Below are positions 1-38,890 of a DNA stretch of 53,798 nt, one piece after another. This DNA comes from Macrostomum lignano. Taxonomy: Eukaryota. How positions within the stretch are numbered: position 1 is the first letter of the stretch; every line of letters begins with the position of its first letter. The notes under the pieces are model-generated. The model was not told the origin of the DNA, searched no databases, and worked only from the letters and a program-made list of their open reading frames with translations. Where the stretch lies: contig NIVC01001640.1 of the NCBI GenBank assembly GCA_002269645.1, forward strand, positions 1 through 53,798. Direction: 5' to 3'. Both the position numbers and the translations under genes were made by a program.

Positions 1-158
1 ATTGTAGGATAGGGATATTGTAGGATAGGATGTTGTAGGATAAAGATATTGTAGGATAGGGATATTGTAGGATAGGGATATTGTAGGATAGGGATATTGT
101 AGGATTGGGATATTGTAGGATAAAGATATTGTAGGATAGGGATATTGTAGGATAGGGA
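1..158. repeat. 16-bp minisatellite (GGGATATTGTAGGATA)n, left part; resumes at 9618
   Basis: Tandem units read directly; the same array continues at 9618-9740 on the far side of the element. Confidence 0.95.
153..158. repeat. Left target-site duplication TAGGGA (partner 9618-9623)
   Basis: Left flank ends ...GATAGGGA and right flank restarts TAGGGATATTG, so 6 bp of the 16-bp satellite unit are duplicated. Confidence 0.9.
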
Positions 159-1090
159 ACTACTAAGCAACGGCAGATGCGCGATTTTGGAGGTGAGGTG
201 GGTGTCAACCCTCCTCGCCTCTCATTGGCTGGCGCCCCGATCACTAGGTGATCGATACCCGTATCGATATCGGCGCTCGGCGCGCGCGCGCGCAGGCGCG
301 TGGCGCCAAGCGCCGTCCAGCCGCAGGCGACCCTCCCCAGCCACCGGCGACCCTCCCCAGCCGCAGGCGCACCTACCGATATGTATGCCACCCTACCGAT
401 ATGTACCCCGATATGTACACCCTCCCGAGCCGCAGGCGCACCCTCCAGCCGTAGGCGCCCATCCGCAGACGCCCATGCCGCAGACGCCCATGCCGCAGAC
501 GCCCATGCCGCAGGCACCCGAGTGTACACTCTACCGAGCCGCAGGCACCCCGAGTGTACACTCTACCGAGCCGCAGCACCCGAGTGTACACTCTACCGAT
601 ATGTACACTCTACACTCTCCGATATGTAGTCAACGATATTAGGCTAGTGAAAACTACTTATAGTAGGTGAAATTGAGTATATTTACATAAAAATGTAGAT
701 AAAACATATTGGTAGGTGAATAATGACGCATATTGCATATTAAAATGTACATATTGGAGCATATGAGCAGCAAAAACACACAATGTAGGTGTATGGGCAG
801 AAATAGACAAAGCAGGTACTGTAGGCGCTACATAGGTGGAAATACACACAGCAGGTTTACAAAGTGTACTTTCGATACATATCGGATTAATGTATAAAGC
901 AGGTTTACAAGGCATGCATAAGGTGTAGTTGTATAATACAGGCACGCATGTATAATCAGATTATAGGCAAACGCCCAGGTGCAACAGACGCGTAAATAAT
1001 GTCGCACCGACTAAAGAGTAAATATTGTCTAACCCGCAGGTGCATAAATTTTAAACAAAAGCGGTTCGGGGAAATCCCAAAAGGGAGGTT
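159..1090 (+). repeat. Left terminal inverted repeat (~0.93 kb) with internal 15-bp and 32-bp tandem repeats
   Basis: Reverse complement of ~8675-9617. The track ORFs 658-945(-) and 8820-9107(+) translate identically. Confidence 0.95.
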
Positions 1091-1401
1091 TTAGCCGCCC
1101 GTTTTCGCCACCGCCGCCGCCGCCCTAACCCTCTTATAGGTACAATTGCGTTGAAAGTATTTCGGTCATTAGGTTGTAATGACCTCCATATTTTAGGTGG
1201 GTGGACTCGAGCCCGGGGCCAGCCCATTTCAGTTTTTTGGGCCGGCCCCTCTGCCAATTTCCTCCCTAGGAGCGAGCTATCAGAATTGGTCTTTTAACCC
1301 CCGTGTATACACACATAGAGGCCCCCAGCTAGCGCCCATTCTAACCTACCCAGTGTACAGTGTTGGGTTCCCCAAACCGCGTACAAAGAGAAATACCCTT
1401 A

Positions 1402-2415
1402 TCAGTCAATCTCCATACGCTCCCTCAGGGCTGTCTCGTACGCGGCCTCTTCCTCCACGCTCTCGAAGCAGTAGTCGGATGACTGGCAATGTGGAAATTA
1501 TAACAGTCAATGTAGATAGAATATATGCAAGGTATATGATTAGATGAGTTGTGTATATAATGTAATATCTTACCAAATCTAAATCGTCCTCCAGCCGCCA
1601 CAGACGTAGAGACGCTGTATAGCGCACCAACGAAAGGTGCTCCTCCCAGTTGGAGGGCCATGCGACGGGCTCATCCCACGCAGTTGGCCGCGCTCCCGGA
1701 CCGGCCAGGTACGCCTCAGAGTCGGGGCATACGAATTGCGCCCCATCAACCAGTCCTGGTGCAGAGTCTCAGCCTCCAACACCTCCCGTAGGCCGGCACC
1801 CCTCGCAACCAAAGTATCAAGAACCCGATTAAAGGCTCTGACAAAGGTAGCTTGGGAGGGCAGCCCGCCAGGATGCCGAGACCTCAGCCAGTCAATGTCC
1901 CCGCGGAAAAATGAGGCCACAATGCGAGGAAAGCGCTCACGAACCACGGCGATCTCCTCAGACATATCCTCGTCCTCGTCGTCGAAGAGAAGGAGCGTAG
2001 CGGCTGATGATATTGAGGCCCGGTGGGAGGTAGTTGAAGCAGCAGCAGAGACGGGCGTAGTAGAGGCGGCAGCAGCAGAGACGGGCGCAGCAGAGGCAGG
2101 GCCGGTTGTGGTCAGCTCCTCAACAGAGACGTCAAAGAGGGCGGCTGAGGCGGTAGTCAAATCGGAGGCAGTAGCAGCAGGGGCACCGTTCACAACCCCG
2201 CCGATAGCCAGCAGCGGGAGGTCAAAAACTTCAGACTCGGTGTCGCTATCATAGGACATAGCCCAAGCTAGATATTGATCAGCCTCCCAATTATCACTTC
2301 CGTTGTTTTCAGTGCCTAGGGGAACTATGTGTTCAGGGATATCCCCGTCGAGGCTGGTTAACTCTTCAGTCGGGCGATTATTATCCCAGAGGTTGGATAG
2401 AGCTCGGCGGGACAT
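1402..2415 (-). CDS. Element ORF1: acidic, Ala/Ser/Thr-rich protein of unknown function, ~307 aa; exons 2415-1574 and 1482-1402; one apparent 1-nt deletion near 1743
   Basis: ATG at 2415 downstream of a TATA-like TATATAA (~2488-2494, minus strand). Adding one G in the GGGG run gives AQFVCPDSEAYLAG...RLEDDLDL ending at a GTAAG donor (1573). A CCAG acceptor (1483) then gives SSDYCFESVEEEAAYETALRERMEID*. Exon 1 length 842+1 is divisible by 3. Confidence 0.65.
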
Positions 2416-2530
2416 GCTAGAATCAACAGAGAGTAAAGTATTAGAGCTGAGATAGGGTTTGACTCTCTGGAGAGGGGGAAACACTAATTATATAGACGGA
2501 TCGAGTGAGGCGGTGCGAACCAATAGGAAA

Positions 2531-3064
2531 CTAGCAGTCCCAACCCTCGTTAAACAGATTTTCCCAGGGTGGAGATTGGTAGGGTTTGAGACCCATGAGC
2601 TGAAGAACATCCACCTCAGTCCCGGCTACCGGAGGCGTGTCTGTCTTGACTCGCTTGGCTGGAGGGGGTGCCTCAGGTGCCGGCTTGAAGAGCTTGTCCA
2701 AACGGGCGGCAAACATCCGGCGCCACAGTTCAGGCGTGAATTCGATCGTGTAGCGCCAATTAAACTTTGGGTCCTGATTGAGCCAATTGCGCAGCAAACG
2801 GATCCTCCCTCGCGAAGCTTCAACTGCCTTGAAATTGCCCAACAGGACCCGCTTGTTCACGTGAAGGCGGGCAGCAGCCTCCAGGTCAGGGCGCGCAGCT
2901 TCGAGCTTCTTCCACTCTGGCTCGGCCAAGTAGATTGCAGGGAAGCCGTCCTTCCACACTCCGGCCTCGTTGGTGTAGAGACGCCGAATTTCAATCAAGT
3001 TGTGTTCAGTTTCAAATGTGGGCTTCCGCGCCACAAAGTTTTCGTATAGAGAGATAGAAGACAT
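2531..3064 (-). CDS. Tandem PC4/Sub1-like ssDNA-binding protein, 177 aa, with PPPAKRVK NLS-like motif
   Basis: LIEIRRLYTNEAGVWKDGFPAIYLAEPEWKKL resembles the PC4 core (LIDIREYW..GEMKPGRKGISL..EQW..L). A second copy reads RIRLLRNW...TIEFTPELWRRM. ATG with upstream TATA. Confidence 0.75.
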   Translation of the reverse strand: MSSISLYENFVARKPTFETEHNLIEIRRLYTNEAGVWKDGFPAIYLAEPEWKKLEAARPDLEAAARLHVNKRVLLGNFKAVEASRGRIRLLRNWLNQDPKFNWRYTIEFTPELWRRMFAARLDKLFKPAPEAPPPAKRVKTDTPPVAGTEVDVLQLMGLKPYQSPPWENLFNEGWDC

Positions 3065-3305
3065 GATTTAGCAGCAGCAGCAGCAGAGAGCTCTCTGACA
3101 GCCGTGCAGCGCCTTATATACCCCCGGTGGAGGGTGGGGTGGGTGATGATTTTGGGGTGATTTTTGATGATTTTGGTTGGTTTTTGGCGATTTATCCAAT
3201 AACAGGCGAGCTGAGCAGATTTTTTAGTATATATACAGACCCCCAGAGCCAGGGTAGAGAGATAAATCCTTCTCTCTCCGCTCTCTCACGCTCTCTGTTT
3301 GCAAA
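3065..3305. promoter_or_regulatory. Divergent promoter between the PC4-like and pPolB genes
   Basis: TATATAAG on the minus strand (~3113-3120), a G-rich box at 3129-3144, TATATATA on the plus strand (~3228-3235), and a CT-rich leader before the ATG at 3306. Confidence 0.55.
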
Positions 3306-6300
3306 ATGGCTAAACGCAGCGCCGCAGCAACTGCTTTCCTGGCTGACAAGAGGCAACGTCTTTATGGTAAGTTTTAATTAATTTCTGTCTAGACTGTAGT
3401 TGCTAGGGTGGGGGTAGGGGCTGAGCAGCAGCAGCAGCTGCAGGGTCTGTGGGACCGCAGAGTAAACAACAAAGACTGCTGCGACAGCTGCAGGGGTCTA
3501 GACTGGAGTTGCTAGGGTGGGGTGCTGCGGCAGGGTCTGTAACAGAGAGTTGCAGGGGAGGGCTAGACAAGTTTCAGCCGGGTGTGTGCTGATAAGAAAT
3601 TGCTGCTAGGGGGGTGTTGTCCAGACAGGCTGCAGCTGGGGTGCAAATTGCTGCGACAGAGAGTTGCAGGGGTGAGTAAACAAAGACTGGGGTGGGGGGG
3701 TTGTCTAGACAGGGAGGGGTGTGCTGATAAGAAATTGCTGCAAAAACAGACAGTTGCTAGGGTGCTGCGGCAGATAAGAAATTGCTGCAGAATCGTTGGG
3801 GCAGGCTAGACAAGTTACAGCCAGGTGGGGCAGAGAGTTGCTGGGACAGACTGGGGCTGCAGATAGGGCGCTACCCAGACAGGCTGCAGCTAGGTGCAAA
3901 TTGCTGCGACAGAGAGTTGCAGGGGTGAGTAAACAAAGACTGCTGCGACAGGCTGCAGCGGGGGTGCAGATAAGAAATTGCAGAGAGTTGCTGCGGGGAC
4001 AGCAGAGTAAACTCTGTTAAGAAATTGCTGGGGCTAGGGCGGGGAAACACGCTGGGGCCAGGAAAATGACAGATTCTTCTGGTTTTTTATCTCCTTGTGT
4101 TTTTTCAGACGCGTTTGTCCCGCCAACACAGCCGGAATCTGTTACCGGACCGGGTGAGTTATCCCGCCCCCCATTTCCCACACAGACCCTAGCTGACTCA
4201 CACTCCCCCATTCCCCCATGCAGGTTTTACGGCCAGGCTGGATAATCAGCGTGACCTGCCCAAGTTTAGGGCAAAGGGTGTCGAGTATGTGGTGCATATT
4301 ACCAACACCGAAGATTTGCGGGAGGTGTTTGCTGACATGCTCGAAGTTTTCAAGCAAGATTTGGCTGGTGATGACTTTATGGCCGCGAAATTCGAGAGCG
4401 ACAATATGCTCAAAGCGGCCCACACTCCCCCGGTGCGTGCAGCCCGCATGACGGCTGAATTGTTGTTTAAGCACATTGACAAGATTGTGCAGTCGATGCA
4501 CGTACTGTCGAGCAACTTTTCTATCCGTCTGCTAAAAGCCTGGGTACCTCGAGGTGGATGTGCTCTCGAGAACAAGCATCTAGAAGAGCGGCACGCCTTC
4601 TCCAAGCACTATGTCCGCATCACCAACTCGGACAAGAGATGCCTGCTGCGCGCTCTGGTCGTGGCCTGCGCCTACCTGCAATTCGTGGCCAAGTCCATCA
4701 CCAAGCGGTGTGGCACACAATCAAGGCCAATTCGCCCACGCAGACTAAGCTGGTGGCTGAGCTACAAATCGAAGCTGGCCTCTACACGGTAAGTTTCTAG
4801 TATTTTTCTGATAAGAATTTTTACACAGTCGTGGAATACTAAAATTTTCTGATAATAATTTTTACACAGTATCGTGGAATACTAAAAGATATATTTTCTG
4901 ATAAGATTTTTTACACAGTATCAGGGAATACTAAAAGAAATATTTTACCCTCCACACAGACTCTTCAAACCGTCTCGCAGGCTGGTCCTTTCGGGTTGGA
5001 TGCACTGCCCGAAGCGATCCGTGCCCTGAACCGGCTGCATCCGGGGCGCGATTTTGGTGTACGCGTGTACCGGCAGAGGAGGCCAACAGGTGCATCTTCA
5101 ACCTGCCTGGCACCGAGATTCTGCACCTGCACCTGGTCGAGCAGCACTTTAATGTGGTCACCAAGCTGCCTGCGTTTTTCGGCTCTGATCACTACTGCCC
5201 AAGTGCGAGATGGCCTACGACTGCGCCAACGCCGAAGCACAAGTGCGCTGATGCCTGCAGTACATGCAAGACTCCGGGCTCCAACTGTAAGGCAAACCGC
5301 GCATATGTAAGATGCCATGATTGCGGGCTAAATTGCTATAATGCTCAGTGCCTAGAAAATCACAAGCGCAAGAATAAGGCGGCAGATCGCGCTGTGATTC
5401 GGTCCACGTTTGCGGCACGTGTGGCTATCTAGAAGAACTAAAAGTAGGCCAGCCCCCTGAGCATCAGTGTGGTTATGCCAAGTGCCCAGTCTGCAAGCAG
5501 TACGACGAAACTGCCACCCACGAGTGCTTTGTCACCCCGCCCAAAGCCAAAGAGTCTAGCGCCCCGTATGTTTACTATGATTTCGAGACGTACGTGGACT
5601 CTGGCAAGCAGCACCGGGTACACTTGGTTACGGCTGCCACCTCCTGCGAGGCGTGTCCCAAACTCTTCCCCAGGCCCCGCTGCAGCGTGTGCGGGGGACT
5701 ACACAGCTCAGCCAATTGCATTGCGGGACGCGATTTGGCACTGGATTTCACGAGCTGTGTCTCGCACAATGACTGTGCCTGTGGGATGCGAGAGTTTGTA
5801 TCTGTCGGGCCGCACTCTATCGATGCATTTTACTGCTGGCTGACTAGTGTGTTCAAGCAGGGGGCAATTGCTATTGCGCACAATGGCTCTGCGTATGACG
5901 CATTCCTCCTGCTCGGCGCCCTACTCAACGGACTGGCCAAGAAGAAGCCGCAAGTGATCTTCCAGAACAGCCGCCTAATGTATATGAAGTGCGACAAGAT
6001 CACCTTCAAGGACAGCCTCAATTTCATCCCTATTGGTCTGGCGCAATTCCCAAAGGCGCTTGGTTTGGGCACCCAACTGACCAAAGGAGATTTCCCGCAC
6101 GTGTTTAACCAGCCTCAAAATTGGGGGTACGTCGGTCCCTACTGCTCAATTGATATGTATGGAGGAAAGAAGAATAAGCAGCATGACTCCATCGCCGACT
6201 GGCTGGCCAAGCAGGAGGGACAGGTGTTTAATTTTAATAAGGAGTACCTGGACTATTGCCTGCAGGACACGTTAATTTTGCGGGAAGGCTGCCTGAAATA

Positions 6301-8320
6301 TGCCCGCCTGATTAAGGACATTTGCGGACTGGACGCATTTGTTCAATCCAACACCATTGCGGGCTTGGCCATGTCGGTATTCACCACCAAGTTTATGGAG
6401 CCCAACACTCTTGGGGTGATTTCCCGCCGGTCCGATGTACAGTCGCACAAGGCGCGGTGCTGGCTGGCACATTTGAATGCAACCGAGTTTGGCGGCCGGT
6501 TGCGGACAGCGGACTCGGGCGGTGAGGCTTTCGCCATGGGTCGTAAGGTCGACGGCTTCGACCCAGAGACCAGGACAGTGCTGCAGTTTCATGGCTGCTT
6601 CTTCCATGGCTGTCCCAAGTGCTTCCCCAACGGCGACGTGCTGCACCCGCTCAAGAACCAGCCAATGCGGGCGATTTATGAGGAGACTGAGCGCTTCACC
6701 CGGTTGCTCTCCACTGCATACAATGTGCGTGTTCTGTGGGAGCACGACTATCAGGACGAGGGAGCGCCAGTCCAGCAGCCTATTCGCCTGGAGGATGCCC
6801 TGTTTGGCGGCCGTACCGAGGCTTTTGTCCCGCACGCCGAGGCCACCGAGACTGTAGAGCTGCGCTATCGGGATGTGGTAAGTTTGTACACTTGTACACA
6901 CACAGTTGACATGCGTTTGAGTTTATCTTATCCTTATCCCCTAGGTGTCGCTCTACCCGACTGTCAACAAGTTTGACAAGTACCCGGTCGGGCACCCGGT
7001 ACACCACCCCGAGCCTCATCTACTGGATGAGCTGCAGCTGGCCCGGTATTTTGGCATCGCCGAGGTGTCGATTCTGCCGCCAACCAATCTCCACATCCCG
7101 CTACTGCCCGCCAAGATTAACAAGAAGTTGGTTTTCGGCCTCTGCCGCGTCTGCATGGAGACCCAGTGCAGCAGCGAGTGTACACACACTGACGCTGAGA
7201 GAATGCTCCGCGGCACGTGGTCGACCCCAGAGCTCCACAAGGCCCTGCAGTTGGGTTACAAGCTGCAGTCAGTTCATGCCCTGGCCTATTGGACCGAGAC
7301 TCGCACGGGTCTGTTTGCAGATTATGTAAACACTTTTTTAAAGCTCAAAGCCGAGTCTAGCGGTTCGCCAGGGATGACTGAGGGCGCCAAGGCTGCCTAC
7401 ATGGCCAGCTTTTTCGAGCGCGAGGGCGTCCGGCTGGAAAAGGTGGAGGAGAATCCTGGCTTGCGCTTTGTGGCCAAGATTTTTCTAAACTCGTAAGTTT
7501 TTTCTACTTGCAGTGGGGGCCGTGTTTTTCTACTTACAAAAAAAAATTTATTTTTCCCTGCAGGCTCTGGGGCAAATTCTGCCAGCGCGACGACCTGACC
7601 TCCACAGAGATTGTGGACAGCTACGAGGCGTGGCTGCAGCGCCTGACCGACCCCTCGATCAAGGTCAAGTCGTGCGAGCCAATTGGGGAGAGCTTCATGA
7701 TGCTCGAGTACAAGCCCCGATTTGGCGGTGCTGGCGAGCGGGCGTTCAAGTACGCTAATGTGCCTATTGGCGTTTTCACCACCTCCCACGCCCGGCTGCG
7801 ACTCTACGAGGCTCTGGAGGGCCTAGGAACCCGAGTCATTTACGCCGATACTGATTCGTAAGTAATTTTTTCACTGTCTCTGTCTCTCTTTCTCCCCTTA
7901 ACACTTTATTCTCCTCCTTCTCCCAGGGTTGTATACCGCTGCTCCCCGGGCGAGTACGAGCCTCCGGGCGGTTCGAGTTTGGGGCAGTGGACTGACGAGG
8001 TACCTGCTGGCTGCCGCATGGTACAGTTCACCACGGGAGGCCCCAAGCTCTACCGGTACGTGGTGGAGAAGCCCGACAGGTCGCTGTACTCGGTGCTCAA
8101 GTGCAAGGGCATCAGAGTCACCCCCGAGATTTCCGAGCGCGAGGACGAGCTGCAGGAAATTCTGCGCCACGGGGGCTCTGTCCGCCTGCCCCAGGCCCAG
8201 TTCAGGCGCGATAAGGCTAGCTGTACAATAAGGACCCTCGAGATGGACAAGACTTTCCAGCGCGTAATGACTAAGAGAGTGTATGGGGCCGCTAGCCGCC
8301 CGTATGGCTTTCGGGAGTGA
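3306..8320 (+). CDS. pPolB: Protein-primed family B DNA polymerase (Polinton type), ~1270 aa, 7 exons: 3306-3366, 4109-4153, 4224-4788, 4981(or 4960)-6877, 6945-7492, 7564-7857, 7927-8320; five small apparent indels at ~4706, 5075, 5200, 5234, 5385
   Basis: ExoI YYDFET, ExoII AHNGSAYD, ExoIII YCLQD; Pol A RDV|VSLYP, Pol B KIFLNS|LWGKF, Pol C YADTDS|; GGPKLY, KCKG and C-terminal RPYGF; N-terminal RGG, DKRCLLRALVVA, HFNVVTKLPAFFG and CxxC clusters. All introns are GT-AG with consistent phases. Confidence 0.92.
3385..4040. repeat. Degenerate repeats in pPolB intron 1 (GATAAGAAATTGCTGC, GAGAGTTGCAGGGG modules)
   Basis: Multiple shuffled copies visible. Confidence 0.7.
4800..4945. repeat. About three tandem copies of a ~45-50-bp unit in pPolB intron 3
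   Basis: TTTTCTGATAAGAATTTTTACACAGT...GGAATACTAAAA repeated. Confidence 0.8.
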
Positions 8321-8674
8321 GTGAAAGATAAGGATCTGTCTTTGCACGCCTGGGATTCCCCTATGTGCCCACTTGGGATCCCTTGACTCGTGGGGATGAA
8401 AATGGTTTTACGCCCGCACTGTACTTAGGGGTCCTTACTCATTTGGCACCTCCACTGTACATTGAGCGGGATCCCCTCAAGTGTTAAAACTCCCATTTGA
8501 CACCTATTCCCTCGGGGCGGTTTGTGGCCCAGCGGTCCGCCTCTTGGAGTAGAACTCCTGACATGAACTTGCTGCGCTGATTAGCGTACTGATAGCGCAA
8601 TCGAAATACGTCCATTTTTCTAGCCCACTTGTGGGTTTAATTGTGTTGAAAGTATATCGGGTCATTAGGCCGTG

Positions 8675-9617
8675 AACCCCCCTTTTGGGATTTCCCCGAA
8701 CCGCTTTTGGTTAAAATTTATGCACCTGCGGGTTAGACAATATTTACTCTTTAGTCGGTGCGACATTATTTACGCGTCTGTTGCACCTGGGCGTTTGCCT
8801 ATAATCTGATTATACATGCGTGCCTGTATTATACAACTACACCTTATGCATGCCTTGTAAACCTGCTTTATACATTAATCCGATATGTATCGAAAGTACA
8901 CTTTGTAAACCTGCTGTGTGTATTTCCACCTATGTAGCGCCTACAGTACCTGCTTTGTCTATTTCTGCCCATACACCTACATTGTGTGTTTTTGCTGCTC
9001 ATATGCTCCAATATGTACATTTTAATATGCAATATGCGTCATTATTCACCTACCAATATGTTTTATCTACATTTTTATGTAAATATACTCAATTTCACCT
9101 ACTATAAGTAGTTTTCACTAGCCTAATATCGTTGACTACATATCGGGAGAGTGGTAGAGTGTACATATCGGTAGAGTGTACACTCGGGGTGCCTGCGGCT
9201 CGGTAGAGTGTACACTCGGGGTGCCTGCGGCTCGGTAGAGTGTACACTCGGGGTGCCTGCGGCATGGGCGTCTGCGGCATGGGCGTCTGCGGCATGGGCG
9301 TCTGCGGCATGGGCGCCTACGGCTCGGGAGGGTGCGCCTGCGGCTCGGGAGGGTGTACATATCGGGGTACATATCGGTAGGGTGGGCATACATATCGGTA
9401 GGTGCGCCTGCGGCTGGGGAGGGTCGCCGGTGGCTGGGGAGGGTCGCCTGCGGCTGGACGGCGCTTGGCGCCACGCGCCTGCGGCGCGCGCGCGCCGAGC
9501 GCCGATATCGATACGGGTATCGATCACCTAGTGATCGGGGCGCCAGCCAATGAGAGGCGAGGAGGGTTGACACCCACCTCACCTCCAAAATCGCGCCATC
9601 TGCCGTTGCTTAGTAGT
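8675..9617 (-). repeat. Right terminal inverted repeat (~0.94 kb)
   Basis: Reverse complement of 159-1090, apart from a few small indels and substitutions. Confidence 0.95.
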
Positions 9618-9623
9618 TAGGGA
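9618..9623. repeat. Right target-site duplication TAGGGA
   Basis: Immediately follows the terminal AGTAGT; identical to 153-158. Confidence 0.9.
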
Positions 9624-9782: not shown

Positions 9783-12525
9783 TGGTGCAACAACACCTGT
9801 TGCAACCCCAGCACCTGCAAATTGGCCAGCGGGGCCGCCTGCGCCTCAGGCCAGTGCTGCAACCTCACCACCTGCAGCCTGAAGTCGCAGGGCGTCGTAT
9901 GTCGGCCAAGGAAGCGAGCCTGCGACCTTGAGGAGTACTGTAACGGGACCAGCGAATGGTGCCCGGAATTTGATGACTTCATGATTGACGGATCAGAGTG
10001 CCTCAACGGACAGGTGAGGAGATATTGGGACCAATGACCAAATGACTCAATGACCCACTGACCCATTGACCCAATGACCCATTGACCCAATGACCCAATG
10101 ACCCAATGACCCATTGACCCATTGACCCATTGACTCACTGTTGATCCAATGACCCATTGACTCAATCATTCCTTAACCCTATGGTTAATCAGTAAACAAA
10201 TCTGTGACCCTCTGAATCATGGGCCTTTGACTCAAGAACCGCAGTTGACCCACTGACCCTCAAGGCCTACTGCTTCAACGGCCGGTGCTCGGACCGCAAC
10301 ACCCGCTGCTCCATGATGTTCAACGCCTCGGATTTTCGGGCCGCCCCGGCCTTTTATTCCGAGGCCACCACTCAGGCATCGCAGCTGGGCTACTGCGACT
10401 ACAGCATGACCGGGATCAGCCCGCTCGCGTACAACTACACCGGCTGCAGTCACGAGTGAGCTAGGGATCGAGATGGGGAGGTGGTAAATCCCAAATTCAT
10501 CAATTCAAAATCCCAAAATCATCCATCCTAAACCCCAGAATCATCAATCCCAAACCACTGAATCATCAATCCCAAACCCCAGAATCATCAATCCCAAACC
10601 ACTGAATCATCAATCCCAAACCCCAGAATCATCAATTCCAAACCCCAGAATCATCAATCCCAAACCCCAAAATCATCAATCCCAAACCCCCAGAATCATC
10701 AATCTGAAACCCAAAATCATCTATCCCAAACCCCAGAATCATCAATCCCAAACCCCAGAATCATCAATCCGAAACCCCAGAATCATCAATCCGAAACCCC
10801 AGAATCATCAATCCGAAACCCCAGAATCATCAATTCCAAACCCCAGAATCATCAATCCGAAACCCCAGAATCATCAATCCCAAACCCCAGAATCATCAAT
10901 CCGAAACCCCAGAATCATCAATCCCAAACCACTGAATCATCAATCCCAAACCCGAAAATCATCAATCCCAAACCCCAGAATCATCAATCCCAAACCCCAG
11001 AATCATCAATCCCAAACCCCTAGAATCATCAATCCCAAACCCCAAATTTATCAATCCCAAACCCCAGAATCATCAATCCGAAACCCCAGAATCATCAATC
11101 CCAAACCCCAGAATCATCAATCCCAAACCCCAGAATCATCAATCCCAAACCCCAGAATCATCAATCCCAAACCCCAGAATCATCAATCCCAAACCCCAGA
11201 ATCATCAATCCCAATTGGTATATTATTTTTATTAATCCTATTCGTCTATCCTAAATCCCATTTTATTAATCCTTAATTCAACTTCTCCGTGAAATGACCA
11301 ACTCAAACTGCTCCGTCCCCCCAGAAACCAACGCTGCGGATTGCTGTATTGCACGTCAAATATCGCCTCAGGCGACCCAATTCCGGTGTGGCAAGGCGCC
11401 AACCTCGCCGACGCCAAGGTGTTCGAGGGCAGCGTGAACTCCACTAACGTGATCGCCGCTTTTATGCAGCTGGACTTGCGCAGCTCCGGCTACCGGGACC
11501 CTGGGCTCGTTCCCAATGGCGCCGAATGCGGAACCGGACGGGTGGGTGCTCCGGTATTTAATAGAGTGCACTTATTAAATTATTCGCACTTAGCCGGGTT
11601 GCTTCGGGGCTGAAATATTTCAGGCGTGAATCACATGAGCCCCAGGACCGATTTTCGTGCCCTTTCTCGGGGGGGGGGTCAGCGGGAAGGGCTTGACTGA
11701 GTTCTGATATTTCAATTCCCAACTCGCAACTATTTTCCAGATGTGCGTCGACTCCCAGTGCGTGGCCATCAACACCACGCGCTGCCCGAACTGCAATGGC
11801 AACGGCTGGTGCACGCAGAGCGGCCAGTGCTTCTGCAGTCCGGGCTTCGCTCCGCCGAGCTGCCTGCAGGCTGGAACGGGCGGCTCCATGACCAACCATC
11901 CGCCTTGTGAGTTTTTTACCTGCTAGTGTATTGACTGGATATTTGTTCTCTGCCGCGAGTTTACTCAACAGCGGCGGGTTTGAAAATTGTTTTAATTGCA
12001 GTTCCTGCGACTTCGACATCAACAACAACAACCACGCCAACAACAACCACGCCAACAACAACCACGCCAACAACAACCACTCCAACAACGCTCGCTCCGA
12101 CAAAAACCACTCCAACAACGACCACTCCAACAACAACCACTCCAACAACAACCACTCCAACAACAACCACCCCCACAACAACCACTCCAACAACAACCAC
12201 GCCAACAACAACCACCCCCACAACAACCACTCCAACAACAACCACTCCAACAACAACCACTCCAACAACAACCACTCCAACAACAACCACGCCAACAACA
12301 ACCACGCCAACAACAACCTCGCCAACAACAACCACTCCAACAACAACCACTCCAACAACAACCACTCCAACGACAACCACTCCGACGATAACGACGCCAA
12401 CAACTCTGACAACAACAACGAACAACGTCATCTGGCCTCGAGAAGCTTCCCAACGCAGATGTAGCCTAGCGCTGTCCCTGCTGTTGCCTTCACTCACTGT
12501 ACTCCTAGCAGCTTGTTTTTCATAA
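9783..12525 (+). CDS. 3' portion of an ADAM-family gene (disintegrin, Cys-rich, EGF-like, Thr/Pro mucin stalk, hydrophobic C-terminus); exons 9783-10013, 10265-10455, 11325-11541, 11741-11906, 12002-12525; 5' exons lie upstream of the window
   Basis: CCNPSTCKL...CASGQCC...CRPRKRACDLEEYCNGTSEWCP (disintegrin); AYCFNGRC, RCGLLYC, DPGLVPNGAECGTGR|MC (ADAM Cys-rich); CNGNGWCTQSGQCFCSPGFAPPSC (EGF). Splice phases are consistent. Confidence 0.9.
10028..10170. repeat. 9-bp minisatellite (TGACCCAAT/TGACCCATT)
   Basis: Intronic tandem units. Confidence 0.85.
10485..11215. repeat. 22-bp minisatellite (CCCAAACCCCAGAATCATCAAT)n
   Basis: About 33 intronic tandem units. Confidence 0.95.
12020..12420 (+). 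repeat. Coding 15-bp repeat encoding (TTTTP)n mucin stalk
   Basis: ACAACAACCAC(T/G)CCA units in frame with the last ADAM exon. Confidence 0.85.
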
Positions 12526-13355: not shown

Positions 13356-15275
13356 TCAAAGTTCACAGTTGGTAGCAACTTTTTTAAACGCGTGCCTCAA
13401 ACAGTTCTGTATGCAACAGGTGGTGGCACCGCAGTGACCATCGGTTTTGCCGCACTCGGTCCCGAACCGGGGCAGCGCTCTGCTCAGCAGCACAGGCTTC
13501 TGCCTCCTAGTCCGAAAGCGTCTGCGCAGCAGAAAGCCCAGCGTGGCGTACTGCTGCGACCACACAGTTCCCACTATGTCTCGGCGGAGTTCGAAGTTCT
13601 CGTGCAGCACGCTGATCTGCTGGGTCAGTAGGGCGATGCCGAAGTTCAGGATGAACACGGCCACGAGCAGGAACACTATGACCTGCGGCCACAGCGCAAC
13701 GTAGTCGCCGATGCCGGGAAAGCTAGCAAAGCTGAATGCGTAGCGGAAAGACCGGCCAAGGTACTCTATGACGCAGACCAGTGAGTAGTTGGAGCACTCG
13801 ATAAAAGGCTGGCTGAGAAGCAACGTTGAGCAAACCAGAGTTACTGGCACAACAGTTAAGAGCACCAGCTTCATGGACACACTCATGCAAAAAAGTAAGT
13901 TTAGGAACACTTGGTAGTGACCGGCCATGTTGGATACAAAGAAAAGTTCCAACATGCAAGTAAAGTAGTAGTTCAAGGCTACTGCGACTTGAAGACGAGT
14001 CGCTTCGACAAACAGGCGTCCATCTTGCTTAAAGTAGCTGCCGGAATCGCTGAAGATGTAAAGCTCCATGAAAATCATACAAACCTGCAGCATGTTGAAC
14101 AGAATCCCAAAGAATTCCATCACCAGACAACCTCGCATCGAGACGGCATCTGCAAGCCAGGTTAGAAACTTGGACCGAGTTCGCATTACCTGGAGCTGAA
14201 AGTGCGCATCAACAACGCGGGCTACGATCCAAGAGAGCCAGATTAGCAAGAAGAAGATTTGGAACGCGACTCGCACGTAGAACACGTATTTGAAAGCGGC
14301 GACAACAGACGGTGAGATGCCCTGCAGGTAGGACTGGTTCGAGTTCCCGCCGCTCGGAATGAACACCTGCACGCTGGAGTTGAATGTGCCCGCCGTGAAA
14401 ATTCGAACTGTCATCGTGCTCAACAGTGAAAAGTAAATCAAAATGTAGATGAACAGACTTATGAAGGCCACCGGCAAGGTCTGTTTCAGGTGGGCAACGC
14501 TGAGAAAATAGGCCTGCGCAACCGGGCTGTGATAGAAACAGATCAACTTCGCTGGAATAACTCCCCCAACCGCAGTCTGCGAAGACTTCAGAAACTGCAG
14601 GAACGGTGACTTGAGAAAGCGGTCCCCGTCGCTGGAGTAGAGGCTGAGGTCGACCTCCTCGACCAGCAGGCTCGGGTCGGTCGGATGCTCCCGCTCTCTG
14701 ATCAGGTATCCGGGCGCATTGGCGAACGCTGTCGCCAGGTGAAAGCAGTCCCTGGCCGCCGCGTACTCCAGCGGTGTCAGGCAGTCGGCCGTCGGCTCCT
14801 CGCTCAGCAGCCGAGCGCACGGGTCCGGATGCCGGCGCGACAGTCTGACGAAGAACCGAGCGAGCTGCGCCTCGTCAGCGGAGCAGGCCTGACTCGAGCA
14901 GCAAAAGTCCACCAGGAGGAACAGGGCGCAGCGGACGCGGTCCCACAGACCGAGGCTGTCGACCAGCTCGACGGCTCGGCTGGCCAGCTCGTCGTCCCGA
15001 CTGAGCAGCACGAGGCAGAACGGCGACAGCTTTGGACAGTCGTTTGCGTTGCCATCGGCGACCAGGTAGTCACAGAACTTGCATCCACTGTGGCGGAGCA
15101 GCTCAGCATTTTGCTGCAGCGCGTCGGCAAAACGGGAGAACTGCCCCGCGTAGAGCAGCCCCATGGCTTTGCGTGCGGTGCGGGCTGAATCCGACTCGTG
15201 CGCATCTTCCAATTGTTTCTGCTCGCCATCAGCGGCACCGGGGCCGCACCGGGGAATCAGTTTTTTTAGCTTCAT
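13356..15275 (-). CDS. Intronless divergent TRP (TRPV-like) cation channel, 639 aa
   Basis: Ankyrin-like LTPLEYAAARDCFHLA; about six hydrophobic segments; S6/TRP-helix-like VFILNFGIALLTQQI...VWSQQYATLGFLL (cf. TRPV LLNMLIALM...W..QRAITIL). Confidence 0.7.
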   Translation of the reverse strand: MKLKKLIPRCGPGAADGEQKQLEDAHESDSARTARKAMGLLYAGQFSRFADALQQNAELLRHSGCKFCDYLVADGNANDCPKLSPFCLVLLSRDDELASRAVELVDSLGLWDRVRCALFLLVDFCCSSQACSADEAQLARFFVRLSRRHPDPCARLLSEEPTADCLTPLEYAAARDCFHLATAFANAPGYLIREREHPTDPSLLVEEVDLSLYSSDGDRFLKSPFLQFLKSSQTAVGGVIPAKLICFYHSPVAQAYFLSVAHLKQTLPVAFISLFIYILIYFSLLSTMTVRIFTAGTFNSSVQVFIPSGGNSNQSYLQGISPSVVAAFKYVFYVRVAFQIFFLLIWLSWIVARVVDAHFQLQVMRTRSKFLTWLADAVSMRGCLVMEFFGILFNMLQVCMIFMELYIFSDSGSYFKQDGRLFVEATRLQVAVALNYYFTCMLELFFVSNMAGHYQVFLNLLFCMSVSMKLVLLTVVPVTLVCSTLLLSQPFIECSNYSLVCVIEYLGRSFRYAFSFASFPGIGDYVALWPQVIVFLLVAVFILNFGIALLTQQISVLHENFELRRDIVGTVWSQQYATLGFLLRRRFRTRRQKPVLLSRALPRFGTECGKTDGHCGATTCCIQNCLRHAFKKVATNCEL

Positions 15276-15849
15276 CTGCTGTTCTGTAATCCGCTGTTCC
15301 GTATGAGCTGCGATTCGATTCTGAAAAAGCTCTGCGACTTGATAGCCAGTCGGATTGAGCTTAGATTAAATACTGACAAGAGGGTGTTTGCTCAGCCTAC
15401 CTGTAATCTACCTGCATTGATATGAGCCAGGTATGGACGGTCGCATTTCCGTTTACCCGGGGGCACAGCTAAGTATGCTCCGGACAGTTGCTACTCTTGG
15501 ACAAATTCAACCTGAGTCTAGTGTAATTCAAACACTGGGCTTGCTGCGGGGCAAATTAATTGTGGACATTTCTAATCGCTGTATTGGCAAACCTGCATCC
15601 GAAACCGAAACCGTGGCAGCATCAATACCTGTCATCTCTGGAACTGCATCTTCCTGTCTCTGTCATCCAATCTGACAGATTGGCAAACTGAAACTGCGAC
15701 TGTACCTCGTATTTAATCAATTCTGATAGGATTTTATAGGATTTTCTCATAGCGTCGAATGGCTGGCTGAAGAGCAGTGCAGCTTGTCAGTGAATGAATC
15801 GGTGAGCACTCATTTAGCATTAGCTAGACAGCCATATTGGCGTCAGTTG

Positions 15850-18554: not shown

Positions 18555-21500
18555 TCAGTGCGGTGGCGAAAACACCAGCCCAGTCCTGTTGGTTGTCAGC
18601 GCGCAATCGCTGGTGCCGCTGTAGTCCCACATGCAGTACCTGGACAGGTACCTCAGAGAGCAGTATCGGCAGCAACACTCGCTGAAGTACCTCGGCGGCA
18701 CCTCCGGCTTTTTGTAGGCCCGGCACCAGCTGCCCACCTTTGCGTCAGTCAGATCCGCCTCGATCTCCGGGACGCGGAACAGAGTGACTCCCAGCTTCTC
18801 CCCCATCAGCTCAATGTTGATTGGTGGCAGCGGAATTTTACCGTTGCTTGAAACGTAGGCTTGCAGCATTTTACCTGCACCATGAGATAGAGCATTGCTT
18901 AGTAACCTTGCTTACCTTGATTTGAATGAATCACCTTTTATCTCAATGAGTCACCTCTGATTTCAATGATTCACTTTTAATCTCAATGAGTCATCTTTAA
19001 AATGAATGAGTCATCTTTAAAATGAATGAGTCACCTTTAAAATGAATGAGTCACCTTTAAAATGAATGAGTCACCTTTAAAATGAATGAGTCACCTTTAA
19101 AATGAATGAGTCACCTTTAAAATGAATGAGTCACCAATTGATCGGAAGAAGGTACAGTTATCTAAATTGATCAATACTGTCCTAAAGAAGACACCCTATT
19201 CCATGACAAGTAGCTTTTGTTTGTTTTCAGTGAGTCGCATTAATCTCGAATCAGTTAAGCTTGCTTTACAGGTTTCCACCTTATTCTAAACGAGTTTTAT
19301 TTCTAAATTGAGGCAATGTTGTCCCAGAAGTCAACTTTGCATTCTCTCACCTCCAGTTTCGTTTCCATAGAGATAGATGGGGTTGATTCTGCCTCGATTA
19401 TAGCACAGAGTGTAGAGCTTCTCAGCGTAGGACGGCAGGTTGCACTTTCGAAGTGGATCCTACAGTGGAGGAGACGTTCCATCGAAAGTATTTGCATCGA
19501 ATCGAGTTGACACAATTGTTAATTTTGTTTCAAACCGTGTCTTACACTAAAGTCGCTTCTCTTCCCGTTGTCGAGATATTCGTCGTCTGTAACACAATTT
19601 AAAGCAGATGTGTGGCAAATTTTGTCAATTTTTTAACTGTCTTTTACAGACAACAACGCACCTTTAACAATGGTGAACTTGATCAGAAATCCACCGTACT
19701 TATCCGTACTGCGAGGCAACGGCTTCTTTCCGTTGGCGACTCGCGCTGTGACGAACTGCACCGTCACAGCGTTGCTAGTGCTGCCAGACATCAGGTAGTT
19801 CTTGGCGCCGAAGACGCTCGGCTCGCTGTAGCTTGGCGGCGCCGTTTTGCCGCCTGCCTTGCCGTAGAACTTGCCCAGCAGTTTGCCGCCAACGCTCGCG
19901 CCCTCGTACACGGCCACATAGTCCTGCGGCCCGGCCGTGCTGAACTCCGGGAACTGGAGCAGCAGCTTGGCTGACCGGTGCGGCGGCGCCAGGGTCCACT
20001 GGCAGTTCAGGCCGCCCGGGTAGGCCGCCCTGCCCTGGCCAAGGTGGCTTCGCAGGGTTCGCTGGCACGCTTGGCCATTGCTGCCGGCAGTTGAGTCGTC
20101 CTTGTCGTCGTCGCTGTCGGCTTGCGGTTTCGAAATTTCGCCACATCCTGCAGTGCCATGGAGGTTGGAGTATGACACCAGCTTTTACAGATAGATATCA
20201 CCAGGTGTACTCAAAGTCACTGCAGGAGCCCGAAATTTCACAAAAAACTCTGGTTGCTTTCGACATACGCGTAACGTGAAGATATGAATAATTCACGAGC
20301 TACTTTGGAGCTTTTGAAAGTCACTGAACTTTATGCTGCTGTTGTTCCGTCAAATATTGAGGAGCAGCATTGGTATTGGTGCACTTCGAAGCAAGCAGTT
20401 ATCGTTAATATTAAATAGCCAAGTGTATTCGCGTTCCTCAATAGGTTTTCGCCCGAGTTAACTTCGTATGTGCTCGGAATTATTCCATTGACATCGCAAT
20501 CACCAATTTTGTGGTTCAGTGACTAATTAAAACACAAATAGTTTTACTGCTAGTAATAGTAATAACAATATGTTTTTAGAAAATACAATAGCTCGCGATC
20601 TGCGCTCCCGTTTGGGGAGAAAACAAAGAAAATAATTATTTTTTGAATAAACACACGTAGCTTTTACCTTGTACAGTGGCTATTGTTTGTTTTTAAAGGA
20701 AAATATACACTGACACGGCTGTTTTGCCAGGCAGCGTCACCTCCAGGAAAAATCCGTAGCTAGGAATGCTCATTCTGCCTCTCCGGTGTTGAGAATGTGG
20801 AGCACTTCATATGTGAATGCTTCGCCTTTACTCAGGACAGGCTCACCTAACTCGACCCAAACCCGAACCTCTCCGACGTTTTCAGACCCGACACCCTCTG
20901 CCAGCTCGTCCGCTACATGTGGACTACCGGGCTCTCCGGAGGGGGGACGAGCTGCGGACACCGGCACCCAGCTATATCTCCCTGTGCGACACCGCAGCAC
21001 CAGCTGCCCGTGGTTGCCAGGGGTTAGCGAAATGGGTGGCGACGCCTCCTCGCTGTATCCGGATGCCTGGAATCCCCTGAAGCTAAGTCAAGTCTCGCAA
21101 GTAAGTCAAAGACATTGACACTGACATCAATTGGCATCTCAAAACCCCACCCATGAGCCATATTTCAGCAATAACCATAAACTTTGCTCACCTCCGGGAG
21201 ATCCGTGAGCCACCATTTGGCAGATAGTGAGTCTGACGTCGCTGTCCAGCGCCGTCACCATGACCCAGCTGCCGGTAGCTTCGCAGTTGAACGACTTCCT
21301 GACGAACAAGTTTCCGTTTTTCCCATTGACGCAGATAGAATTCTCAACGGACAGTTGGAAGTTTTTAGTCCACTGGTTGAACTCGGCAGCCGAGTGCAGC
21401 TCGATCCGCTCGAACTGGAAGCTCCTGTCAGTCTGCGCCATCCACCAGGGCCGATGACTCGCACTGGTCATCGCGCAGCTGCTCAAGGACACCTTCGGGC

Positions 21501-25560: not shown

Positions 25561-25645
25561 TAACGCAGTGATGGAGCGGTAAAAGCGCTCGTTTTGAAAG
25601 GGGCTCCTCGGTCGGCAATATCCAGAGCTACGCATAGTCAGCATC

Positions 25646-34391
<8,746 letters not shown>

Positions 34392-36176: not shown

Positions 36177-38890
36177 ATGCGTAAGTGTCATAGATAATAA
36201 TTTATGGCTTAATTTTCACAGTTTGCATCTGTGTAACATAACTAGCTGCAACCGAGTCACTTGAACTAAAATCAAATCAAGCAGTGGCACGTTTCCTGCG
36301 GCAGAATCTCAGCAAAAAAATAACTAATGAACTTTGCTTCAAGTTACCAAGACAGAGAACCTGCTTCAAAGTATTTTTTCACTTGAAATAATTAGCGGCC
36401 AATTAGATAGCAAAAAATCGCCGGAAAGTACTGCAGTAGCTGCTTGAAACGTTTTCAAATGAAGCGGCATTCTAGAAAATTTAGTTTGAACTGCAAAACT
36501 CTCGATTTACGTTTAGATGGCTGGGAATTTTCGTTCACCTGTGTCATTTCTTTACACTCAAAACCAATCTAAACTAAAGAGATTCTCAGGGCATTAAAAG
36601 TACATTGATTTGGGGTTGTGACTCTGAAGGAGTGCGTGGATTCGATACGTAGATTCGTTTCGGTGCTACTCTAGGATATAGACTGAGACAAAGATCTAGG
36701 GTAATTAAAAGACTAACGGGCATGCAAATTGGGTTTGAGAAGTTTCTGATATTTTAACTCATTGCAGCCAACGCCGCTGCCACAGCTGCGCCGCTTCTGG
36801 CCCTGCTGACCATCTGCGCGTTGCATCAGCAGCCGTCCCAGGCCCTGGTTTGGACGCAGGCCTTCAGCTCGGAGTTGGCCACTCGCCAATTCTTTGGTTT
36901 TCGGCTGTGCAACGCGCCTCCATCGAAGAGCGTTGTGTTAGAGGCGGTAGATGCTTACAACATCACGGACGCGAACACGCCAGGTTTAGTCTACTCGGTG
37001 AAGTCAAGAATTAAACTATACGTCATCTTCTGCAGTGGAAGTTCAGTAGATGCCACTCAAAATTTTTTAGTAGCGGGAATGCCGACTGTGATTCAATGGC
37101 GAGACATCTGCGACAACACGATCAACCTGGCTATTTACCTGCAGTCGTCAGTTACACCAGAGTTACAGAACACTTTGCAGCCCTGCAACTATGAAGTACA
37201 GCATTCTGGAATCACTGAGCAGCAGGTGACCGCGTGGGTGCTGGTGACCTACACAGCCAACTGGGACCCCGTGTGGGTCAATCGAACTCTACCAGAGCCC
37301 AGAGACAGCAACACCACAGCATCTGTAATGCTCAGTAGCAGCACGGATCCACTGTCGAATGCCACTTGGTATCGCGTTCAAGTGAACTCTGGCCTGCTCG
37401 AAGATTCCATGTCGCCAAATCAACGCGTACAGGCGGTTTTGACGTCCATTTCAACGGCTCCGGGGCAAAGATGGTGGCTGCTTATCTGCAGTGTTCTCAA
37501 TGCTACGGAGAACTTGCTAGTGAAAATCTCTGACAACAATGAAACTGTGGATATGCATATGGACTGTGGGAGTCTCGTACAGCCTACCCTGGTGCTGGGT
37601 GCTCCAGCCAACAGTTCCAACGAAACTCTCCCAGTCCCGGCCGTCCAAAGCTCCTCCGGTGGCTACTGGGGCCCCACACTGCAGCGACTTCTGACTGAGC
37701 AGACGTTTGGGGGCCTTAACTTCTGCAACGCATCCGAAGCTGACGGGGCTGTCCTCGTGAATGCGGTCGACGAAATCGTGATCGGGTTGGACTCCGGCGC
37801 CACTACACCTACCGTAGTCAGAGCTACCCTTGACCTTTACGTGGCACCCTGCGACAGCAGTTCTAGCCTGGCACTGGGAGACGCCTTTTTAAAAGTTTTC
37901 CTCCAGGGCGACGCGAATTGGACGGAGGTTTGCGCGGACTCCGCCAACCCGACTGTCACTGTGAACTTGGTCAACAGAACCGCATTGCGGTTCAACCCGT
38001 GCCCGGCAGCCAATGCCACAGCAGAGGAATCTGCTGCAAAGCTGGCCTGGTGCATTCTGGCTTTGAACTCGTCCGATTCAGAGCTGCTGTGGACCAACCG
38101 AGACACCACTAGCCTGGTCGAGCCGTCGGCTGCCAGCGTGTCCTTTCGGATACTCGGGGACGCCAGCAACATGGTGCTGCAATGGGGCAACGTTTTAGTG
38201 AACGGAATTTCAACTGGGGACAATGCCGACCGACTGGTCCAGGTGTTCCAATCAGTTAGTACCTCTTACTGGCCAGTTGTTTGCCAGCTTTTAAATCCTT
38301 CGACTGGGAGCTTCATGCTTATCGAGATTCAGAGCGGTGAAATCAGTAGTAAAAAAATCAACCTCTATGCAAACTGCAGCTTTGAAAGTGAACTCTCCAG
38401 CACTCCACCGCCTACTCAACCTCCAACAGCGGTAGAAACCACTGCTGCTTCGACATCTGCACCATCATCAACGACTCCGTCAGCTACTTCAACGACTAAA
38501 ACGACGACGACTACACCAACAACCACGACTACCATGCCAACAACCACGACGACCACGTCAACAACCACGACAACCACGTCAACAAGCACGACGACAACTA
38601 CGCCGATGACCACAACAACTTCAACAAGTACATCAACTGCAACCACAACTACACCAACTACAACTACAGAGGCTTCATCAGCGTCACAACAATCAGAGAG
38701 CACCTCTACCACAGTTTCTGTACCTGTCACACTCTCTGCCGAGCAGAGGAAAGATAAGAAAGACATCGAGGATGCTGAAGGAAGACTGGATTTCGGAACT
38801 CAGACAGCCGTGTTGGTCTTTGCTCTGGTAATTATGGCGTTACTGTCCACAGTTGGTATTTGCAAGCTGGTGGCACCCAGGTCTATTTAA
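36177..38890 (+). CDS. Mucin-like type I membrane glycoprotein, ~708 aa; exons 36177-36180 and 36768-38890
   Basis: TATA-like TATAAG at ~36143; ATGC|GTAAGT micro-exon; signal peptide MPNAAATAAPLLALLTICALHQQPSQA; many NxS/T sites; Thr-rich stalk; TM TAVLVFALVIMALLSTVGIC; short tail. Confidence 0.8.

Follow-up and report, generated by a model that had tools for sequence, protein, structure and literature searches.

A Polinton-type DNA polymerase gene with six spliced introns in a short Polinton-derived element of Macrostomum lignano

The window analyzed here is a stretch of 53,798 nucleotides of the Macrostomum lignano genome (assembly GCA_002269645.1, contig NIVC01001640.1, positions 1 to 53,798), and near its left end lies an element of 9.46 kb (159-9617) that starts with ACTACT, ends with AGTAGT and is flanked by a 6-bp target duplication. 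The element carries on the + strand a gene for a protein-primed DNA polymerase of family B (pPolB), of the Polinton type, which extends from a start codon at 3306 to a stop codon at 8318-8320 and is divided into seven exons by six introns. The initial annotation of this DNA had described the polymerase gene; the element itself, the missing integrase and capsid genes, the unusual ends and the gene-less relatives interpreted below as satellites were not part of it.

Exon 1 (3306..3366) encodes a basic start that resembles a nuclear localization signal and is putatively one, and is followed by intron 1 (3367..4108; 742 nt, phase 1, rich in repeats), the 45-nt exon 2 (4109..4153) and intron 2 (4154..4223; 70 nt, phase 1). 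The terminal-protein domain, a PxGG linker and the Cys half of a putative vOTU-like protease are encoded by exon 3 (4224..4788), which is separated by the AT-rich, repeat-containing intron 3 (4789..4959; 171 nt) from exon 4 (4960..6877) with the remaining vOTU part, a Cys-rich region, the 3'-5' exonuclease, a VSR-like insert and the start of motif A. The last three introns lie inside the catalytic motifs: intron 4 (6878..6944; 67 nt) within motif A (RDV/VSLYP, the slash marking the intron), intron 5 (7493..7563; 71 nt) within motif B (NS/LWGK), and intron 6 (7858..7926; 69 nt) within the Ser codon of motif C (YADTDS), where its retention brings a stop into frame. Exon 5 (6945..7492) accordingly runs from SLYP to the start of motif B, exon 6 (7564..7857; 294 nt) from LWGK through YADTD, and exon 7 (7927..8320) to the stop codon. 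The six GT-AG introns and their positions in motifs A, B and C had been proposed before, and our map agrees with that proposal to within a base; for intron 3 the proposal had allowed 192 or 171 nt, of which the 171-nt form was recovered in the probable RNA runs (skipped in four of four, see below), the 192-nt form corresponding to a second acceptor AG 21 nt further 3', at 4980.

All six donors read GTRAGT and all acceptors YAG, so that with their pyrimidine tracts and their removal from RNA the introns have the features of U2 spliceosomal introns. Since the motif GTRAGT occurs eight times on this strand against a mean of 2.5 in shuffled sequence, with 4% of the shuffles reaching six, its count is only mildly above chance, and the proof of the introns is comparative and comes from RNA. 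When the gene is read unspliced, introns 1, 3, 5 and 6 introduce stops and introns 2 and 4 shift the frame; each retained intron thus disrupts the protein, and an active enzyme depends on host splicing, as had been suggested. The window copy also contains several frame changes between ~4700 and 5400 (one at ~4700 in exon 3, others at ~5080-5390 in exon 4), which were absent from the initial annotation and because of which the gene is not open in this copy as assembled. The insertion was assembled a second time, with identical flanks; that version carries different frame breaks, and because the two differ in this way assembly error is the likelier cause.

The six introns are removed from transcripts. 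Four of 24 listed runs, from four studies, were mapped; all consist of contigs, and their status as RNA is a guessed label only. Introns 1, 2 and 4 were each skipped in three of the four runs, while intron 5 and the 171-nt form of intron 3 were skipped in all four. Intron 6 is absent among the joints listed; a 2,936-nt contig of run X1, which covers exons 4, 5 and 7, has exactly 294 nt between exons 5 and 7, the length of exon 6, and by way of this one contig the probable RNA runs lack all six introns, as had been predicted. Unspliced contigs over donors 1 and 4 were found alongside the spliced ones. In the GenBank protein ALD16274.1, labelled Macrostomum lignano, all three catalytic junctions are joined, and the same holds for parts of many UniRef models.

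The polymerase protein made by splicing is under purifying selection. In 18 genomic copies the donor and acceptor pairs are intact in 105 of 105 cases, and exon lengths are almost constant while intron lengths vary (119-320 nt for intron 3). Comparison with the window copy gave a ratio of non-synonymous to synonymous change (pN/pS) of 0.05-0.09 in 16 of 16 comparisons, which are not independent since the copies are related; variant codons comprise 130 synonymous against 34 non-synonymous ones. Where whole genes could be read, all seven exons are open in four of 13 copies, giving a protein of ~1,280 residues with intron phases 1, 1, 0, 0, 2 and 2. All 132 candidates were scored, and none of the 126 exon-5 matches is an intronless copy. 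About 50 of these matches show at least 90% identity and constitute family 1, and ~30 near 70% constitute a second family, both counts being inflated by duplicated loci; at least one polymerase locus duplicates the window insertion, flanks included.

Family 2 shares 68% amino-acid identity with family 1 and differs from it at 64% of 285 four-fold sites. Its introns occupy the same six positions, the catalytic three having been read in five copies and the upstream three in one copy, with matching donors in others, and intron sequences cannot be aligned between the families. The sharing of all six positions at this divergence implies that the gains are old, in line with the earlier suggestion of a lineage long transcribed in the nucleus that has gained introns. 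Use of the downstream intron-3 acceptor by family 2 was considered and dropped: each family possesses a pair of acceptors spaced by 21 nt, the residues in between being similar, and no acceptor shift is therefore claimed. Comparison of six family-1 and five family-2 introns revealed no similarity among them at an E value of 0.05, host introns genome-wide lying outside this search, so that the introns compared do not form a repeated sequence family of the introner kind.

At the catalytic junctions, the homologous positions in 82 viral and metagenomic loci are contiguous (gap of at most 9 nt) in 55/56, 44/44 and 20/23 testable cases, and the four non-contiguous junctions have gaps of 59, 12, 12 and 36 nt; in nearly all testable cases the homologues therefore do not carry these segments as in-frame insertions, the outcome by which the initial annotation would have been overturned. 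In a quick tree of 46 rows, from which three HNH-type polymerases found in the genome and a single family-2 model were omitted because motif A was not located, the sequences with introns group in a single clade (support 99) nested among unbroken homologues; the sister of this clade is a protein encoded on a metagenomic contig of 3.2 kb (support 100). Both observations support the earlier view that the introns were gained by this lineage and are not ancestral. The nearest outside polymerase is 35-50% identical, exon by exon. No relative above ~41% overall identity was found outside M. lignano in two word searches and one full scan, nor among 31 viral loci or the best 80 of the 232 metagenome matches, a search that did not extend to other Macrostomum genomes and in which clusters at 50% identity can hide relatives. 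Within the genome, a decayed intronless VSR-type polymerase at G000:C234:57200-59400 (L089) is 35-45% identical and is the only other polymerase of this type that was found.

The encoded protein has the domains of a protein-primed family B polymerase. Exons 4 and 5 match Pfam DNA_pol_B_2 (PF03175), the exonuclease and motifs A, B and C are intact with their invariant residues, the motifs are likewise present in ALD16274.1, and the exonuclease and VSR-like motifs are conserved. Residues 1-110 were modeled with a score of ~90 in the predicted local distance difference test (pLDDT) and have the order of strands and helices described for PRD1-like terminal proteins. The exon 3 model adopts a little-finger/PAD fold, with DNA polymerase IV as a match at Z 6.7 (root-mean-square deviation 3.0, 89 aligned residues) and other little-finger matches to polymerases eta, kappa, iota and Rev1 (Z range 5.0-6.7). 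An invariant Ser lies between helix 2 and the last strand, the place to which the linking residue of Polinton terminal proteins is assigned (10.1101/2024.03.18.585575). A Cys that is invariant in 16 sequences follows the PxGG linker, and a His motif is found in the next exon; linker and Cys would match a vOTU arrangement, the vOTU part of the model having low pLDDT. A single-sequence model of a database polymerase reached a pLDDT of 32, and Foldseek searches of viral models returned nothing at an E value of 0.001. The initial annotation had expected searches based on open reading frames (ORFs) to miss this family, but exon 4 alone matches DNA_pol_B_2 at 7.6e-15, and dozens of UniRef gene models exist besides ALD16274.1 with its three spliced catalytic junctions. 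What escapes pipelines that demand an integrase, a capsid and unbroken ORFs is the element, not the polymerase family.

The element is bounded by a left terminal inverted repeat (159..1090, + strand; 932 nt, 98.6% identical to the right repeat) that starts with ACTACT and a right one (8675..9617, - strand) that ends with AGTAGT. Its 6-bp target-site duplications are located at 153..158 and 9618..9623 (+ strand), and the left copy lies inside a 16-nt host tandem repeat, which makes it weak evidence when taken alone. At other loci the picture is the same, since 6-bp duplications were found in all 13 family-1 elements for which both ends could be read (the duplicate of the window insertion apart), in four family-2 elements and in 17 of 17 polymerase-less elements, and both the duplicated sequence and the flanks differ from locus to locus. 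The element thus enters new sites as one unit and duplicates 6 bp of target.

Two further genes are located on the opposite strand. A putative single-stranded DNA-binding protein of 177 amino acids (2531..3064, -), divergently oriented to the polymerase, resembles PC4: Atlas PC4 clusters scored 0.86-0.87, which we treat as a lead only, and the protein is 43% identical to its family-2 counterpart, which reaches the Pfam PC4 cut-off, and ~30% identical to the PC4 genes of full Polintons. The second gene, an orphan named ORF2 (1400..2415, -; 3' end approximate), encodes an acidic protein with a middle part rich in Ala, Ser and Thr and contains one 91-nt intron (1483..1573, -; CT..AC as read on the + strand) that was skipped in three of the four runs; its frame differs from that of another copy near codon 255. 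ORF2 has no Pfam, PHROGs or Atlas match, the only homologues found are from M. lignano, and neither family 2 nor some of the copies gave any sign of it. A contig of run X1 at window 1164-3083 extends unspliced over ORF2 and the PC4-like gene; a single transcript is not thereby established. At L060 (on G000:C1263) and L061-L062 (on G000:C3085), one family-2 element carries a dUTPase gene, and another consists of the right arm folded back on itself over 6.0 kb, flanked by a 6-bp duplication of its own.

No integrase was detected in the element by Pfam, tblastn or a 14-sequence profile. When 13 small elements were compared with 391 ORFs from Polinton loci, the only matches were to polymerase, PC4 and dUTPase, and no gene for a capsid, packaging ATPase or protease was detected with this query, in which the capsid genes of full elements are not individually identified. 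Rfam yielded nothing in three loci. Like the animal Polintons/Mavericks with a VSR-type pPolB, the element has the terminal-protein, exonuclease, VSR-like and polymerase parts, a putative vOTU-like part and a PC4-like gene (10.1101/2023.08.22.554363), as well as long terminal inverted repeats (within 100-1500 bp), a target duplication within the 5-8 bp range and ends of trinucleotide repeats. Unlike them, it measures 9.46 kb instead of 13-25 kb, encodes no detected integrase and no virion module, has a polymerase with six spliced introns in place of intronless core genes, and ends in (ACT)2//(AGT)2 (ACTACT in family 1, ACTACG in family 2) and not in (AGT)2, (AG)3 or (AC)3A. The element acts like the replication half of a Polinton but departs from the group in integrase, virion genes, size, end motif and introns; it is Polinton-derived, not a Polinton.

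Full Polintons are abundant in the same genome. They measure 12.9-17.5 kb and have AGTAGT ends, an integrase, an ATPase and single-ORF polymerases that are barely or not at all alignable with the spliced polymerase. Their integrase was found at 115 matches, most with open frames. Several families (L069-L088, L230-L232) together hold polymerases of three kinds, of which some include an endonuclease VII domain, and more than 100 integrase loci. Among the seven full Polintons whose ends were read and 100 of 201 ends, none is an autonomous element sharing the ends of the small element; the ends of three further integrase subfamilies were unreadable. In one small element (G000:C271:276939-317558) the polymerase gene is interrupted by a full AGTAGT-ended Polinton with its own 6-bp duplication.

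The end pattern of the small element has 201 matches in the genome compared with none for a reversed control, and 100 of these were listed. Paired ends among them are 8-10 kb apart in 28 of 33 pairs, and the one long pair contains a nested full Polinton. Eighteen stretches with such ends lack the polymerase, and most of them are non-coding, near-perfect palindromes that belong to a single young family and have direct duplications; the idea that these same-ended elements carry the integrase was accordingly rejected (16 + 2 stretches). The palindromes, exemplified by L101-L117 (G000:C436:114944-124196, G000:C181:502515-511202), are 6.7-9.4 kb long, are found at at least 20 loci, have no long ORFs and show an arm identity of 96-100% in most matches. 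Their arms alternate AT-rich and GC-rich blocks and have nothing but the outer 200-700 bp in common with the polymerase element, and their direct 6-bp duplications argue that they are not artefacts of palindromic reads. An element on C100, considered as a fold-back of the left arm of the polymerase element, was found to belong to this palindrome family. The length of 8-10 kb common to coding and non-coding elements hints at size selection, a point on which the palindromes, being one young family, provide few independent data. The first 27 nt occur as 16 types in 18 copies, yet both ends match in 14 of the 18. Short variable blocks at window 167-185 and equivalent positions, adjacent to the constant end motif, are mixed and matched among elements, are common to polymerase-bearing and gene-less ones, and mostly agree between the two ends.

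Taken together, our results suggest that the element is probably a reduced, replication-only Polinton derivative with a spliced polymerase, borrowed integration and palindromes as its satellites. Its mRNA would be made by host RNA polymerase II and the spliceosome, and the polymerase would use its own terminal protein as primer at the ACT-ACT ends. Free linear DNA could then be copied by strand displacement, aided by the PC4-like protein, and integrated by the retroviral-like integrase of resident full Polintons, a step to which the 6-bp duplication points; because the ends of full Polintons differ, a borrowed integrase must accept another end. The gene-less palindromes with the same ends would replicate as satellites of the spliced polymerase. 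Copying from DNA to DNA would also mean that introns, once gained, were never erased and were inherited through the whole radiation. From the end-matched variation, which is as expected from panhandle replication, and from the existence of fold-back forms we infer a free linear intermediate.

Several observations weigh against this explanation. All seven full Polintons with read ends start with AGTAGT and carry an unrelated polymerase, of 13 whole-gene copies only four keep every one of the seven exons open, and the Z-scores of the little-finger matches are middling (<8). Intron 4 of family 2 has 81 or 87 nt and is stop-free in four of the five copies examined, so that it can be read as an insertion of 27-29 residues, and the RNA mapping covered family 1 only. 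The mapped runs are RNA by guessed label with no DNA run as a control, and intron 6 depends on a single contig. The integrase profile missed a gypsy integrase that was present among its targets, and a distant or finely split integrase could therefore escape it. The 14 of 18 copies with matching ends include palindromes, which match by construction. Finally, no free linear DNA was observed, and extrachromosomal replication is a deduction.

A broader reading goes further and can be put forward only tentatively, as we find it somewhat doubtful: a Polinton lineage may have left the virus life-style altogether and become a spliced, host-like nuclear replicon that retains the replication module alone, with ends re-coded for recognition by its own polymerase, integration borrowed from unrelated full Polintons and gene-less 9-kb palindromes as parasites, the rapidly changing subterminal mosaic being the trace of their conflict. 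If this were true, an animal with tractable stem cells would harbor a three-tier system of helper, dependent and satellite linear DNA.

The ends, which are unlike those of all seven full Polintons read, would also fit an element that is one segment of a bipartite Polinton, or one that has an unseen same-ended partner in which an integrase gene, and perhaps a capsid gene, is split into small exons. Such a partner might lie beyond the 100 ends listed out of 201, the 18 polymerase-less stretches fetched and the limited reach of the profile, and the alternating AT-rich and GC-rich blocks of the palindrome arms would agree with it. However, apart from one nested retrotransposon and one polymerase fragment, the polymerase-less elements contain no long ORF and no match to a Polinton gene, the spacing of 8-10 kb in 28 of 33 pairs leaves as sole long pair the one holding a nested full Polinton, and two elements of the most distant among the integrase subfamilies sampled also have AGTAGT ends. 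We consider this alternative unlikely.

Slightly less likely still is that the introns are a switch, imposed by the host or evolved by the element, with one intron retained in the soma and removed only in the germ line or in stem cells; a tissue-specific switch had been raised in the initial annotation. The P element uses intron retention as such a switch between soma and germ line. If intron 5 or 6 stays in, the frame closes directly at NS or DTDS, and unspliced contigs over donors 1 and 4 occur beside spliced ones; but these contigs hold no information on tissue, strand or level, and those that are unspliced may stem from pre-mRNA or from DNA. The six splice sites, moreover, are all of strong consensus, and a switch would add to the replication-only explanation and not replace it.

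Strong purifying selection together with many young copies could also be explained if the element were mainly a nuclear linear plasmid (episome) of stem or germ cells, of which the free form is selected and the chromosomal copies are by-products of capture by a Polinton integrase. The end-matched mosaic of subterminal blocks across polymerase-bearing and gene-less elements would then suggest recombination among free genomes, and the variation in accessory genes, such as the dUTPase of one family-2 copy, is consistent with this. There is, however, no direct sign of free DNA, and ordinary excision, copying and reinsertion give the same patterns, which makes this possibility improbable, a shade more so than the switch. 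That the interruptions are insertions in dead copies, or that a domesticated host gene was spread by segmental duplication, as the frame breaks in the window copy and most assembled copies and the duplicate locus with the same flanks might suggest, is very hard to reconcile with splicing, with the conservation of the splice sites, with a low pN/pS, with flanks and duplications that differ at the other loci, and with breaks that differ between two versions of one insertion and so point to assembly error.

The reduced, replication-only derivative can be set beside several known systems. Non-autonomous derivatives of Polintons are shorter than the full element and depend on a helper. Unlike these, the polymerase element keeps a selected, expressed polymerase and ends of its own that are shared with no full element read, and the classic non-autonomous role fits the palindromes instead. 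The mRNA of the adenovirus polymerase is spliced at its 5' end; to our knowledge, the catalytic core of adenovirus and bidnavirus polymerases is uninterrupted. Both virus groups differ further from the element in having capsids and an inactive vOTU and in not integrating by an rve integrase. As far as the accessible parts of the works cited here and below go, adenoviruses and bidnaviruses are nuclear pPolB replicons of Polinton descent, and fungal linear plasmids of the pGKL type resemble the element in lacking a capsid, in being linear replicons, a form that is conjectural for the element, and in their fusion of terminal protein, vOTU and pPolB, of which the vOTU part is putative in the element (10.1101/2024.03.18.585575). 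In the pGKL type a small plasmid is assisted by a helper (PMC13348850). Unlike the element, which is chromosomal with target duplications and needs the nuclear spliceosome, these plasmids are cytosolic and unspliced. Dinoflagellate Polinton-like proviruses also contain introns of the spliceosomal type, the introners, which are repeated transposon families with ~90% consistent with insertion after integration and, in the accessible parts, no demonstration of splicing or of a working polymerase (10.1101/2025.03.18.643946); in contrast, the six introns of the element share no sequence, are fixed in two families and are spliced.

The statement of the initial annotation that Polinton genes are usually intronless agrees with the literature, where elements were called intact only with intronless ORFs (PMC8097293) and introns are reported in cargo while the Polinton core is intronless (10.1101/2022.07.12.499685). 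A retroviral-like integrase is part of the Polinton definition (PMC5499653), and ACT repeats are not among the three end motifs listed for vertebrate Mavericks (PMC8097293). Prokaryotic gene callers are held to be suited to endogenous viruses since these are free of introns (PMC10120064), intron-bearing transcripts from viral regions of an alga were interpreted as host genes or domestication (PMC10675990), and other reports concern group I introns (PMC12220804, PMC11296320). Searches of the open-access literature revealed no account of the element, nor of a Polinton polymerase with spliceosomal introns, with Repbase-type libraries, subscription journals and supplements, which could hold an annotation, outside this scope; none is described in the accessible parts of 10.64898/2026.07.28.741278 and 10.64898/2026.10.13.758929, and in those M. 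lignano papers that were searched for the word, Polinton is not mentioned.

As surveys rely on intronless Polinton genes, spliced lineages may elsewhere be filed as decayed. The polymerase gene offers a clean case of intron gain, with six datable gains in a gene that entered the nucleus intronless. The element also amounts to a natural dissection of the Polinton cycle in a worm amenable to RNA interference, its replication genes being kept and its integration and virion genes dropped, so that the little-tested Polinton model of terminal-protein priming, a free linear intermediate and an integrase acting on the ends becomes testable.

Just downstream of the element, at window 10208-10456, lies an exon for an ADAM cysteine-rich domain, and the element probably sits within an intron of this host ADAM gene, because UniRef models fuse ADAM domains with the polymerase. 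Further host genes at window 19633-20184, 25598-28032, 13356-15365 and 36758-38890 encode, in that order, a CUB domain protein, a receptor of the rhodopsin family, a membrane protein in which several hydrophobic segments occur, and a Thr-rich membrane protein of secreted type that has no Pfam match. A tetraspanin-like motif is found near window 43,460; the 71- and 73-nt introns previously claimed for a tetraspanin gene were not seen. The window also contains many minisatellites.

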